Below, in pieces: positions 5,647-60,901 of a stretch of DNA of 64,000 bases. A model generated the notes under the pieces. The model did no database searches. It saw only the letters and a program-made list of their open reading frames with translations, and had not been told where the DNA came from. This DNA is from an uncultured Verrucomicrobiae bacterium (lineage in GTDB: Bacteria > Verrucomicrobiota > Verrucomicrobiia > Chthoniobacterales > JAFAMB01): assembly GCA_963762565.1 (NCBI GenBank), contig CAVXLD010000013.1, positions 32,001-96,000 on the forward strand, written 5' to 3'. The position numbers were made by a program, and so were the translations under genes. Position 1 is the stretch's first letter. Each line of letters begins with the position of its first letter.

Positions 5647-6816
5647 TTATCCGTCGTGCAAGGCGTTGATGGCTTCGCGAAGGTCCACAACATCTTGCAT
5701 CTGATGCGCCGCTGACAGCGTTACGCGGAGTCTGGCCGAACCCCTGGGCACGGTTGGGAACCGTACGGCTGGGACCAGGAAGCCTCGTTCTGCCAGCTGT
5801 TCTGAAAGAGAAAGGGCTTGTTCTTCCAAGCCCACAACTATGGGGACGATCGCTGATCGGGTAGCTTCCGGACTGGATTGGTTAAGGTTAGCCGTTAGCT
5901 CTGCGTGATTACGCCAGAGCGCCTTCCTTAATTGGTCGCCGTTCTCGGAAGCAATGATGCCTAACCCCACAATCGCGGCAGCAATAGCGGCCGGCGGAGG
6001 AGCTGTTGAATAAATAAAAGTCCGGGCGCGATTGATGAGGACATCAATTAAATCTGCGGGACCAGCAATGAATCCCCCGCTGGATCCAACCGCCTTGCTG
6101 AGTGTGCCGAGATGAATGTCGACGCGGCCGATCAAGCCACATGCGGCAGCTAAGCCAGCCCCATTTGGACCAATAACACCGGTTGCGTGTGCCTCATCGA
6201 GAAGCAGCCCAGCCCCGAATTCATCCTTCAGGTCGACGATCTCGGTTAGAGGGCAAGAGTCGCCATCCATGCTAAAAATGGACTCTGTGACAATGAGAAC
6301 TTTGGCCCCGCTTCTTTTCTGGCGAGCCCAGTTCAATAACTCCTCCAAGCGCTCCAGCCGGTTATGAGGATAGACGCGAATCTCCGCGCCGCTCAACCTG
6401 GCGCCGTCGATTAATGAGGCATGCGCCAGCTTGTCTAAGATGATCACATCGCCCTGGCCAAAAAGGGCGGGAATGGTACCCAACGCTGCGGCATATCCGC
6501 TTTCAAACGTAAGGGCCGCCGGGGTCTGTTTGAAGCTAGCCAGCCTTGTTTCCAGTTCTGAATGAATGGCCAGGGTGCCGGTGAGCAAACGTGATGCACC
6601 GGTGCCGGCGCCAAACCGTTGGGCGGCTTCGGCCGCCGCCATCTTGAGCTTCGGATGTTCAGTAAGTCCCAAATAATCGTTGGAGGCGAAGTTCACTAGC
6701 GACCTGCCTGCGCGACTAACGCGGGTCCCATCGACTTCGTCGATGGTCCGCAACCGCCTGTACAGCGCTCGTTGCTTCAGATCGGCGATGAGTTCTGAGT
6801 AAGAATAGGAGTTCAA
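5647..6816 (-). CDS. bioF: 8-amino-7-oxononanoate synthase
   Basis: FASNDYLGL, GASRLLTG, HASLIDG, ESIFSMDGD, DEAHA, GTLSKA, FIYSTA, RFPTVP; start set at TTG 6816 because the upstream ORF extension is a repeat. Confidence 0.9.
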   Translation of the reverse strand: MNSYSYSELIADLKQRALYRRLRTIDEVDGTRVSRAGRSLVNFASNDYLGLTEHPKLKMAAAEAAQRFGAGTGASRLLTGTLAIHSELETRLASFKQTPAALTFESGYAAALGTIPALFGQGDVIILDKLAHASLIDGARLSGAEIRVYPHNRLERLEELLNWARQKRSGAKVLIVTESIFSMDGDSCPLTEIVDLKDEFGAGLLLDEAHATGVIGPNGAGLAAACGLIGRVDIHLGTLSKAVGSSGGFIAGPADLIDVLINRARTFIYSTAPPPAAIAAAIVGLGIIASENGDQLRKALWRNHAELTANLNQSSPEATRSAIVPIVVGLEEQALSLSEQLAERGFLVPAVRFPTVPRGSARLRVTLSAAHQMQDVVDLREAINALHDG

Positions 6817-7027
6817 TTGGTAGGGCGAGGCTCCCGAATGACCCGAAATTTTCGCAGGTGATGGGATGTCGCACCAGAATAGCATACGTTACCCGACAGA
6901 GCGTGCCGAGCCGTGGTCCGCGCAAGGTGACGGCTCGGCACGTTCATTGGCGCAGCCAGGCGAAAGTTCGTCATAATCAATTCTCCCTGCGCCGAACGTA
7001 ACGTCGTTCGGGAGCCTCGCCCTGCCA
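6817..7027. repeat. REP/REPIN-like element, family A (complete doublet)
   Basis: TTGGTAGGGCGAGGCTCC-70nt-GCCGAGCC-19nt-GGCTCGGC-71nt-GGAGCCTCGCCCTGCCA. Confidence 0.85.
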
Positions 7028-7031
7028 TCAA

Positions 7032-7754
7032 CTACGGCGTAACTGGCGTCTGCTTCAAGAGGTGATCCATGTCTGGATCGGCGTGTGCGCCCAGTTGGAG
7101 GGCGCGATAGTAGTGGCGGCGAGCTAACTCGATGGCAGGAGGCTTGCGCTCGGTGTAGACCATTGCCAGATTAAAATGAGCCTCGGCATAATCCTCGTCC
7201 AGTTCAACGGCCTTACGGAGCTGGTCCTCAGCTGCATCTAACCACCCCCGCTTACGCGCCAATACTCCGAGATACATGTGAGCATGTGCGTTATCGGGTT
7301 CGAGATAGATCGCCTGGCTGAGTGCCGCCAGGCTGGCATCCAATTCGCCTTTTCGGAAGGCAATAATCCCGAGAGTCAGCCATGCCTGCGTCACGTCCGG
7401 ATCCAGGTGGACGGCTTTGCGCAAATGTTCTTCTGCTTTGTCAAGTTCATCCAGGCGATACTCAGCAGAGCCAAGATTAATCCAGCCTCCAGAATAATTG
7501 GGCAAAAGCTCGGTTACTCGAGCAAACGCTGTCTTTGCTTCTTGAAATTGGCCTGCCTGAAATTTGGCTAAACCGCTTTCGAAAGCCTGGTGTACTTCCG
7601 GCTCCATCACGGGGGCGTTGGTTTGGTCGCTTCGGCCAGCCAGAGGGCAAAGAAAAATGGCGGTTATTCCTGCCGCCAGCGAGAAGCGATAGCAGGAACG
7701 CTTTCTTCGGGGAAGGCCAGGCTGTTTTATGCTCATCGAGGTGAGGACACCCAT
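7032..7754 (-). CDS. Exported tetratricopeptide-repeat protein
   Basis: Signal-like N-terminus followed by several TPR units (WINLG, AWLTLG, AHMYLG, AHFNLA). Confidence 0.85.
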   Translation of the reverse strand: MGVLTSMSIKQPGLPRRKRSCYRFSLAAGITAIFLCPLAGRSDQTNAPVMEPEVHQAFESGLAKFQAGQFQEAKTAFARVTELLPNYSGGWINLGSAEYRLDELDKAEEHLRKAVHLDPDVTQAWLTLGIIAFRKGELDASLAALSQAIYLEPDNAHAHMYLGVLARKRGWLDAAEDQLRKAVELDEDYAEAHFNLAMVYTERKPPAIELARRHYYRALQLGAHADPDMDHLLKQTPVTP

Positions 7755-7803: not shown

Positions 7804-8092
7804 CCTGGAGGGGAGCCGCTTTGGCGCCCGGCATAGAAACCTCACAACCTTCCTCACAGCGCGGCTGCCGCCAAGATACTTCTTTAACAAGCGGCTCCCG
7901 CGAATCACCCATCGTATTTTTTTGCCCACGCCTCCGTCGTTAATGGACGTTGATAAGCGTATCGGCAATAGACCCTGCGACGCGCTGGGTCATTCCCGGG
8001 AGCCGCCTGTTTAGTACGATTTGAGAACGCACGCCCGCTGGAATGAATCGAGCGGGGCCCTTGGGTTTCGCGCCAAGCGGCTCCCCTCCAGG
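7804..8092. repeat. REP/REPIN-like element, family B
   Basis: Perfect 18-bp terminal IR CCTGGAGGGGAGCCGCTT/AAGCGGCTCCCCTCCAGG, inner IR 7889-7911/7986-8008; second copy at 60692-60901. Confidence 0.85.
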
Positions 8093-18695: not shown

Positions 18696-18899
18696 TTGGT
18701 GGGGCGAGGCTCCAAAACCTTATCAATCCCATATCGAATTGGCTTACTGGTGTGAATTGTCCGTAAAAGGTGGCAGCCTGGCCGAGCCGCTGCGTCGCGC
18801 CACCCGCGGCTCGGCCAAGCTGATCACGCGCTCTGATGGATCGGCCTTGTAGAACTAATTCGTCAGGAATCGGCCACATTTTTGGAGCCTCGCCCTACC
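18696..18899. repeat. REP/REPIN-like element, family A (complete doublet)
   Basis: TTGGTGGGGCGAGGCTCC-67nt-GCCGAGCC-19nt-GGCTCGGC-68nt-GGAGCCTCGCCCTACC. Confidence 0.85.
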
Positions 18900-19014
18900 G
18901 TCATTACCGCGTAGCGGTCCGCCTCGCCCTACGATTATGGGGCGTAGCCGCCGCCTCGCCCGATCAAACATTTCCCCTGTTGAAATTGCGGCTAGGTTTA
19001 GAGAAATTCCCGAC

Positions 19015-19324: not shown

Positions 19325-19458
19325 TTGGTAGGGCGAGGCTCCCGATCGGCCGACAACGGTTCGCAACGCTTTTGGCTTTATCCGTCGGATTAGTGTGCTT
19401 CACCTTCTTGCTCGCCGAGGCGCTGACCCATCGCGTGCTACGCAGCCCCGTCCCCCAA
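19325..19458. repeat. REP-like element, family A (one arm plus degenerate partner)
   Basis: TTGGTAGGGCGAGGCTCC-71nt-GCCGAGG, then degenerate CAGCCCCGTCCCCCAA. Confidence 0.75.
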
Positions 19459-19514: not shown

Positions 19515-19587
19515 GGGGGTATAGCTCAGTTGGTAGAGCGTCTCGTTCGCAATGAGAAGGCCAGGGGTTCGAATCCCCTTACCTCCA
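19515..19587 (+). tRNA. tRNA-Ala(CGC)
   Basis: Acceptor stem GGGGGTA/TACCTCC with G3:U70, D-arm AGCTCAGTTGGTAGAGC, anticodon loop TTCGCAA, GGTTCGAATCC T-arm; CCA not encoded. Confidence 0.97.
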
Positions 19588-60691: not shown

Positions 60692-60901
60692 CCTGGAGGG
60701 GAGCCGCTTTACAAGATGGCAGCTCTATCGGTTGCTAGCAGGCGGCTCCCGGGAATGACCCAGCGCAATGTTTTGCACATCGCGTCTAATGCCCGCAGCG
60801 GATACAACGGCCCATAGAACTGCGACACCTCGAGACGTTCCCGGGAGCCGCCTGCTGCCAACCCATAGAGCTGCAATGCTACAAAGCGGCTCCCCTCCAG
60901 G
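60692..60901. repeat. REP/REPIN-like element, family B
   Basis: Same 18-bp terminal IR as 7804-8092; inner arm shares 27 identical nt with that copy. Confidence 0.85.

Follow-up and report, generated by a model that had tools for sequence, protein, structure and literature searches.

Long-loop REPIN elements with loops of held length, and a RAYT gene nested among them, in an uncultured soil verrucomicrobium

A repeat in the genome of an uncultured Verrucomicrobiae bacterium from soil, here called family A, is a gene-less mobile hairpin element of the REP/REPIN kind. It is very probable that family A is a non-autonomous REPIN population belonging to one transposase, RAYT-A, and that its short sequence blocks are kept while the loops between them drift at a held length. 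The repeat was noticed in a window of 64,000 nucleotides (G000:C13:32001-96000) from a 6.12-Mb assembly (G000; 15 contigs, 54% G+C); positions below are those of the window unless a contig is named. An earlier note, made from the letters of the window, had read the repeats as GTAG/GTGG-tagged REPs and REPIN doublets, substrates of an HUH transposase, with an over-long loop in which length and not sequence is constrained. That core reading stands: the gap between blocks is 69-73 nt in 400 of 470 cases, and a RAYT gene flanked by the blocks was found.

The four copies in the window lie where the note had placed them (2597-2704, 6815-7028, 18696-18899 and 19325 to ~19422). The six segments between their blocks, taken between GGCGAGGCTCC and GCCGAG(C/G) or the complements, are 70, 70, 71, 67, 68 and 71 nt long, exactly as given there. 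The centres of both complete doublets are equal, as claimed; their length, 19 nt in the note, varies with the choice of block end, being 17 nt if counted from GCCGAGCCG to CGGCTCGGC and 21 nt if counted from GCCGAGC to GCTCGGC. Allowing up to one mismatch, the window contains 9 matches to the core GGCGAGGCTCC, where 2.05 would be expected; in 100 shuffles this number was never reached. The features are as follows.

2597-2704, no strand: deletion derivative, in which the left outer block joins the right inner stem at GGCTC; a right loop of 70 nt and the right outer block follow
2617-2686: the 70-nt segment of the 2597 copy
6815-7028, no strand: complete family-A REPIN of two inverted long-loop REPs, one of 207 doublets in the genome
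6815-6836, forward: left outer block TTGGTAGGGCGAGGCTCCCGAA, comprising the GTAG tag and the 5' REP-stem half GGCGAGGC (consensus of 654 oriented copies)
6835-6904, forward: left loop ('arm') and first segment, 70 nt, of free sequence and held length
6903-6913, forward: left inner stem GTGCCGAGCCG, the 3' half of the left REP stem, which pairs also with 6931-6941
6914-6930, no strand: centre, 17 nt, the position taken by the transposase gene in the master copy on contig C10
6931-6941, reverse: right inner stem CGGCTCGGCAC
6940-7010, reverse: right loop ('arm') and second segment, 71 nt
7007-7028, reverse: right outer block TTCGGGAGCCTCGCCCTGCCAT, off consensus at 7024
18696-18899, no strand: second complete family-A REPIN, with loops of 67 and 68 nt (segments 18714-18780 and 18816-18883) and ends of the CCAAAA subtype
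19325-19422, forward: left REP only, with outer block, 71-nt loop (segment 19343-19413) and GCCGAGG; the right half is missing

In the 2597 copy the left outer block directly abuts the right inner stem (GGCGAGGCTC followed by GGCAGC), so that the left arm and the centre look deleted. The site (2593-2712) lies between two convergent genes; in four of five genomes of the genus (G002-G005) it holds an additional 1.7-2.5 kb, G000 has just the truncated family-A copy there, and in G001 the flanks are on separate contigs. At the site orthologous to the 18696 copy, G005 has the same end subtype and a different 106-nt interior. Just past that copy, at 18900-18960, the short pieces CGCCTCGCCCTACG and GCCGCCTCGCCCG share GCCTCGCCCTAC with the outer block and may be leftovers of other REP units. 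The 19325 copy is followed by a tRNA gene at 19515-19587.

Genome-wide, the core has 656 matches at one mismatch or fewer, 494 of them exact. Adjacent plus/minus pairs, 211 in number, take up 422 of the 656, and 102 of the 234 unpaired cores carry a GT(A/G)GG tag; inverted pairs spaced 100-600 nt number 207 and form doublets able to fold back. Read 5' to 3', a unit consists of TTGGT(A/G)GGGCGAGGCTCC(C/G)GAA, an arm of ~70 nt, (c/g)GCCGAGCCG(T)GG, a centre, and the mirror image of the first three parts. Each REP accordingly comprises a GT(A/G)G tag, the stem half GGCGAGGC, a loop of ~74 nt and the stem half GCCGAGCC, and a REPIN is an inverted pair of them; the 5' GTAG-type tag stands beside the stem-loop, as in REPs generally, with the consensus TTGGT(A/G)GGGCGAGGCTCC. 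Both inner stems are present in 187 of the 207 pairs, and among these the arm measures 67-74 nt in 175 on the left and 157 on the right, while 81 of the centres span 17-21 nt and all others 24-157 nt.

Counted by half-units, 567 5' blocks were found, 470 of them with a 3' block no more than 200 nt away. The genome-wide gap distribution, which the note had seen as a way to probe its reading, is sharp, at the 69-73 nt already given, and the stem-to-stem loop of ~74 nt is this block gap plus 3. The length of the left loop does not predict that of the right one (r = 0.05, n = 161 elements; means 70.9 and 71.4 nt), and one sequence profile is common to both halves of the element. Along the arm, identity is raised at the first 9 positions, at positions 22-26 and at the last 14, and the loop ends retain a weak family consensus; the other ~40 of ~71 positions show a pairwise identity of 0.25-0.30 against 0.254 expected, like random DNA. 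Pairing of the left loop with the right one was considered and rejected, above-chance agreement being confined to ~10 nt from the blocks.

The two blocks described in the note do form a stem: GGCGAGGC pairs with GCCGAGCC along 8 bp, the middle two of which are G.A pairs. Across 428 halves in G000 the stem hardly varies, so all covariation comes from relatives, which were sought by a half-unit scan over 185,579 species genomes; 80 loci were examined among the matches listed. These matches include further long-arm doublets in several Verrucomicrobiota MAGs and, in other lineages, a form in which the blocks touch, GG(G/T)(A/G)GGGCGAGGC-TCC(C/T)-GCCGAGCCG. Among the matches listed, this short-loop form occurs in Fuerstiella, Phycisphaerales, Pirellulaceae, Gemmataceae, Chthonomonas, Fimbriimonadales and others (Planctomycetota and other lineages), often arrayed or in inverted pairs; it was present in one of 200 sampled genomes of the phylum. 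At 26 nt with a 4-nt loop it fits the description of a REP as a 20-40 bp unit with a loop of a few bases, outside which the family-A loop, ~74 nt from stem to stem, falls.

In 143 short-loop REPs among the matches listed, pair 6 is G-C in 118, A-T in 19 and C-G in 1, with 5 one-sided changes, and pair 7 is G-C in 137 and C-G in 5; these counts are of copies and not of independent events, the 19 A-T cases coming from 10 loci. Since the same stem closes a 4-nt loop in other lineages, the loop appears to have grown to ~74 nt in this genus. On its own, a stem of 8 bp with two mismatches would hold a 74-nt loop only weakly, and the pairing between the left and right halves of the doublet (22 and 11 bp) is far stronger. 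A single short-loop REP in G000 (C5:277230; GGCGAGGCTCC-T-GCCGAGCC), with flanks of the family-A type, is either the ancestral form or a copy after loop loss.

The RAYT gene flanked by family-A motifs, which the earlier note had thought worth looking for, lies outside the window at G000:C10:17375-17833 on the reverse strand (ORF L172:876-1334(-)). It encodes RAYT-A, of 152 aa, and sits between the two inner stems of the family-A copy C10:17252-18012, in its wide centre, so that a single-copy gene is flanked by inverted REPs of its own kind. RAYT-A matches the NCBIfam model NF047646 'REP-associated tyrosine transposase' with 84.5 bits (cut-off 80, E = 6.4e-24); the Pfam search came back empty, with no match to the Y1_Tnp model. 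Among proteins of solved structure E. coli TnpA-REP (4ER8, E = 6.2e-7) is its best match, and the alignment takes in the HUH and Y..NP motifs: PDHLHLF and RRYMFMNPV of RAYT-A lie against HmH and Y..NPV. Residues H65, H67 and Y122 are invariant in five of five homologs, and by this alignment Y122 would be the catalytic residue.

RAYT-A has no second copy in G000, its nearest paralog being 48% identical. Orthologs with 80-87% identity occur in G002, G003 and G004, nested alike as far as the contigs reach; in G002 the order is outer block (-168), inner (-86), gene, inner (+32) and outer (+109). The downstream flanking gene is common to all four loci, and the upstream one to G000 and G002. The best homologs, in one genome each of Gemmataceae, Fuerstiella and Phycisphaerales (42-46% identity, E ~1e-37 to 1e-39), have short-loop REP flanks in all three cases. 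A RAYT-A query of G044 and G045, both of which carry the short-loop REP, found no homolog.

Genes detected by Pfam Y1_Tnp were considered as the family-A partner and rejected: none of 12 matches in G000 is flanked by family A. Across 30 Y1 loci in five genomes with the short-loop REP, the motif lies within 1.5 kb at 2. Five of the Pfam-detected Y1 genes in G000 are small (C7:408676-409131, C3:712440-712943, C3:55401-55913, C9:102172-102684 and C1:119023-119463), and one of them has an in-frame TAG. Those at C7:408676, C3:712440 and C3:55401 are flanked by hairpins of the GTCCC..GGGAC and CCAGGCA..TGCCTGG types and those on C9 and C1 by other hairpins, all five being unrelated to families A-C.

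Two sister systems in the same genome combine a RAYT gene with repeats of other fixed loop sizes. RAYT-B, the 48% paralog (G000:C7:542253-542699, outside the window), falls short of the NF047646 cut-off with 69.2 bits. On either side of it lies family B, which consists of GGTAGGGCGAAAATCTCGGCGCG, a loop and CGCGCCGGATTTGAGCC; the loops are variable in sequence and measure 29-33 nt in 80 of 80 two-block units. RAYT-C (G000:C1:579811-580251; 33% identical to RAYT-A, NF047646 89.4 bits) is flanked by family C, made of GGAGGGGAGCCGC, a loop of variable sequence and GGCGGCTCCCGG, with gaps (n = 338) falling at 33-36 nt (128), 56-58 nt (21) and 67-72 nt (181). In both families the two blocks are plainly complementary, and stem-to-stem loops come to ~30 nt in B, 34, 57 and 70 nt in C, and ~74 nt in A. 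Sister species have B-like and C-like enzymes among B and C repeats; eight other RAYT paralogs in sister species have none of families A-C beside them. Helical phasing of the blocks was rejected, their start-to-start distances (~46, 50, 70, 82 and 83 bp) sharing no multiple of a helical repeat. The window itself holds two family-C REPINs with GGAGGGGAGCCGC outside and GGCGGCTCCCGG inside, at 7807-8089 (long class, right-half gap 69 nt) and 60695-60898 (33-nt gaps).

Loop length and blocks are held while the loop sequence drifts at about the neutral rate. Among 51,681 arm pairs only 95 are detectably alike. Pairs of elements that are 79-92% identical over their full length, with both loops shared, sit in unlike flanks, so whole doublets were copied together with their arms. 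Between orthologous copies the arms are 58-71% identical and the blocks 88-100%; in the alignment of the RAYT-A locus the arms carry 0-1 single-base gaps, and the adjoining non-repeat spacer longer ones. A contig from an unrelated soil study spans 6717-7686 of the window with 27 differences, 11 of them inside the element: 10 among 145 loop and centre bases, 1 among 66 block bases, and no indel. The left loop holds 5 of the 11, and at the sole block difference (7024) the related strain has the consensus A. Loops and centre thus differ by 6.9%, what neutral sites would give, against ~2% in the mostly coding flanks. Arms that change at a roughly unconstrained pace give no sign of hypermutation. 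The comparison of orthologs and strains, in which the note had hoped to see how the loops change, therefore reveals gradual divergence by substitution with the blocks intact and, at the handful of loci compared, hardly any indels in the loops.

Contigs of four soil runs yielded no excision or transposition event; the joints seen had sides of only 21-24 nt and came from other copies. At four family-A copies (G000 C1:65980-66508, C1:301171-301666, C11:82224-82805 and C12:257324-257823) the right outer block contains, at one and the same position, an element of ~290 nt that is almost identical between them and has the ends GTGGTCAAGACATAGGTAAC; it either targets that block or carries a copy of it. 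In 31 of the 207 family-A copies the two flanks complement one another at 11 positions or more out of 16, which happens in 1.2% of shuffled pairings; these copies sit at the tip of another hairpin repeat, often one with arms of 7-base tandem words. Complementary flanks in the window are found at the 19325 copy (GTGATTGGTGATTAGTGATTGG) and on the 2704 side (TTTTCACTTTTCACC).

As for mechanism, the tag and stem, in single-stranded DNA, are presumably what RAYT-A recognises. Through HUH/tyrosine cleavage and rejoining, the enzyme would on rare occasions copy or move a whole doublet, without leaving a target duplication; at each site the blocks would be kept intact, and the loops would drift about neutrally but have to keep their length. 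Catalysis by RAYT-A, a folded single-stranded form as its substrate and a role of loop length in recognition are what we infer. A benefit to the host, or gene conversion, would explain the kept blocks no less well than the needs of the transposase do.

A further idea, which we regard as an outside chance, is that the loops act as rulers for the sequence-blind single-strand binding protein (SSB). The E. coli protein has a 56-nt binding mode. As described in part of one preprint, the SSB tetramer has site sizes of 35 and 65 nt, and one tetramer fully wraps (dT)70 (bioRxiv 10.1101/2020.12.05.412478); the loop classes of families A-C (~30; 34, 57 and 70; 74 nt) lie near the tetramer site sizes. 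One wrapped SSB on the lagging-strand template would then join the stem halves and present the REP to the transposase. Such a ruler would explain the free sequence, the non-folding, the discrete lengths and the near absence of indels, and would make a host protein an architectural cofactor.

By crude ORF calls, family A is mostly intergenic: the midpoints of 171 of the 207 pairs lie outside ORFs, at a median of 21 nt past the neighbouring stop codon. Spacers between divergent genes are under-used (20 of 170). E. coli BIMEs have been reported in transcription termination, mRNA stabilisation and nucleoid-protein binding, and the blocks of family A could likewise be kept mainly for host use, with the transposase as their historical spreader and the spacing set by the geometry of a host protein or of RNA processing. 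The position after stop codons suits this, as do blocks that stay intact at orthologous sites while the loops drift, and a strong single-stranded fold of the whole element (6815-7028 folded as RNA, -120.3 kcal/mol, z = -10.3). Against it, the orthologous spacers of sister species hold other repeat families or none. Among 25 orthologous sites with family A in another species, G000 has family A at 4; one of the others is empty, one is a 1.1-kb stretch without A blocks, and the remainder carry B, C or tandem-word palindromes. No particular site thus needs family A. Moreover, both strands fold and the halves share one profile, which argues against a strand-specific RNA role. On balance we think it improbable that host use is the main reason for the blocks.

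In the spacer that holds the 6815 copy (loci L010, L011, L015, L016 and L018), four species have hairpins armed with (GGAGTTCA)n and a fifth has another type, and G000 has family A together with one kept AGGAGTTCAA unit at the left flank (6790-6816, 7029-7060). Elsewhere, sites with family A in one species have family B or C in G000. Across the wider group, all five other members of the genus carry the family-A 16-mer (31-291 copies), as do 8 of 19 further genomes of the bacterial family (1-15 copies); it is absent from all 16 genomes that represent other families of the order.

A structured non-coding RNA, with conserved helices and variable loops of fixed size, had been one of the note's suggestions and is very improbable. 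The strong predicted fold of the whole element and its conserved helices with variable linkers are what such an RNA would offer. The loops, however, fold no better than shuffles: a cloverleaf with one hairpin per loop, as drawn by the minimum-energy fold, was rejected, 322 loops set against dinucleotide shuffles having a mean z of +0.03, with 4% below -2. No Rfam family matches; searches of the whole window at the gathering threshold and of 6750-7100 at a permissive one returned only the tRNA and PtaRNA1, the latter with 16.9 bits, well short of its gathering score of 47. The mirror symmetry of the element leaves it without a defined strand, the element is present or absent among orthologous sites, and in the master copy a transposase gene fills its centre.

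The perfect 22-nt terminal inverted repeats, the size of 210-300 nt and the dispersed copies might also suggest a MITE whose 22-nt ends are recognised by a classical DDE transposase, a reading that is extremely improbable. At none of the seven boundary offsets tried do direct repeats of 2-5 nt border the element more often than in shuffles, so no target-site duplication is seen; 12 wide pairs examined contain no DDE gene, the larger ones holding the RAYT, nested repeats or host genes; and the ends bear the GT(A/G)G tag of REPs. MITE interiors are usually conserved, and those of family A are not.

The note had further proposed that the loops are actively diversified or capture DNA. Targeted hypermutation, or capture of foreign or local DNA, would account for the random-level identity of ~40 loop positions and for the rarity of alike loops, and is largely refuted: related copies inherit both loops, orthologous loops remain recognisably alike, strain divergence is at the neutral level, and the loop ends hold a family consensus. 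When the loops were aligned and searched, as the note had envisaged, the random-level middles matched nothing in phage or plasmid collections, and in the genome 8 of 322 middles match outside the listed elements, at what look like unlisted copies. With folding, capture and diversification having failed, the note's remaining suggestion, a spaced two-part recognition site, is still the best description of family A as a REPIN.

In the running text of the literature compared, REP loops of 30-74 nt that lack pairing were not described. On RAYTs in Verrucomicrobia or long-loop REPs, only Di Nocera et al. 2013 proved relevant, and a search of published full texts for the motif letters returned unrelated primer matches only. 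The present system amounts to a natural experiment on how RAYTs recognise and move REPINs: the same enzyme-repeat pair comes with a loop of 4 nt in some lineages and of 74 nt in this genus, and two sister families of other fixed loop sizes lie in the same genome. Its repeats could serve directly as substrates for testing the geometry that the enzyme requires and a possible role of a host protein, and it offers clean evidence of per-site selection, with blocks and loop length kept and ~40 loop bases per arm free. Surveys of REPs that drop odd loops, and the Pfam Y1_Tnp model, would both miss it, so similar systems may be under-counted in soil Verrucomicrobiota and Planctomycetota.

Elements of the IS200/IS605 group have an HUH/tyrosine enzyme, hairpins near their ends and asymmetric ends, and their gene multiplies along with them. 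With these elements and their gene-less palindromic derivatives, family A shares the type of enzyme, the near-end hairpins and the lack of a target duplication. IS200/IS605 elements, however, have distinct left and right ends and multiply with their own gene, whereas the family-A gene exists in one copy and multiplication is confined to the symmetric doublets.

E. coli TnpA-REP (Messing et al. 2012, PMC3479197; 4ER8) acts on a tagged hairpin substrate, as RAYT-A presumably does. RAYT-A, which is known from sequence, is ~25-30% similar to 4ER8 over 100 residues only. E. coli REPs are ~35 nt long with short loops, in contrast to the ~74-nt loop of family A.

The GTAG REPs of the verrucomicrobium Opitutus terrae and of Rhodopirellula baltica (Di Nocera et al. 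2013, PMC3733652) carry a 5' GTAG tag, as family A does, and in the part of the survey used here GTAG has become GTGG in most elements of one O. terrae family. According to the same text, their stems are 6-13 bp, some with an unpaired G and A, again like family A. Their loops are mostly 2-3 bp, the large ones 9-15 bp and the largest named 27 bp (PMC3733652); families A-C differ in having loops of ~30, 34, 57, 70 and 74 nt without internal pairing. The survey comprises 24 families, of which the short-loop REP may be one; repeats with loops of unusual length were dropped from it (PMC3733652), so the long-loop kind would have been missed.

Another parallel is the REPIN system of Pseudomonas fluorescens SBW25 (Bertels and Rainey 2011, PMC3116915). 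In the portions of that paper drawn on here, two inverted REPs likewise form one replicative unit with hundreds of extragenic copies, a single-copy transposase gene is flanked by its own REPs, and the ends are more conserved than the interior. A constraint on length and not sequence is noted there for the spacer between REPs, together with pairing that is kept by compensatory changes (PMC3116915). In SBW25 the free part is thus the inter-REP spacer, whereas in family A it is the loop inside each REP, and the left and right loops neither pair nor fold. Doublets of family A measure 210-300 nt, and the invariant 16-mers of the SBW25 GI doublet start 71 bp apart (PMC3116915, same portions). Family A is a REPIN-RAYT system in every tested respect but unit size.
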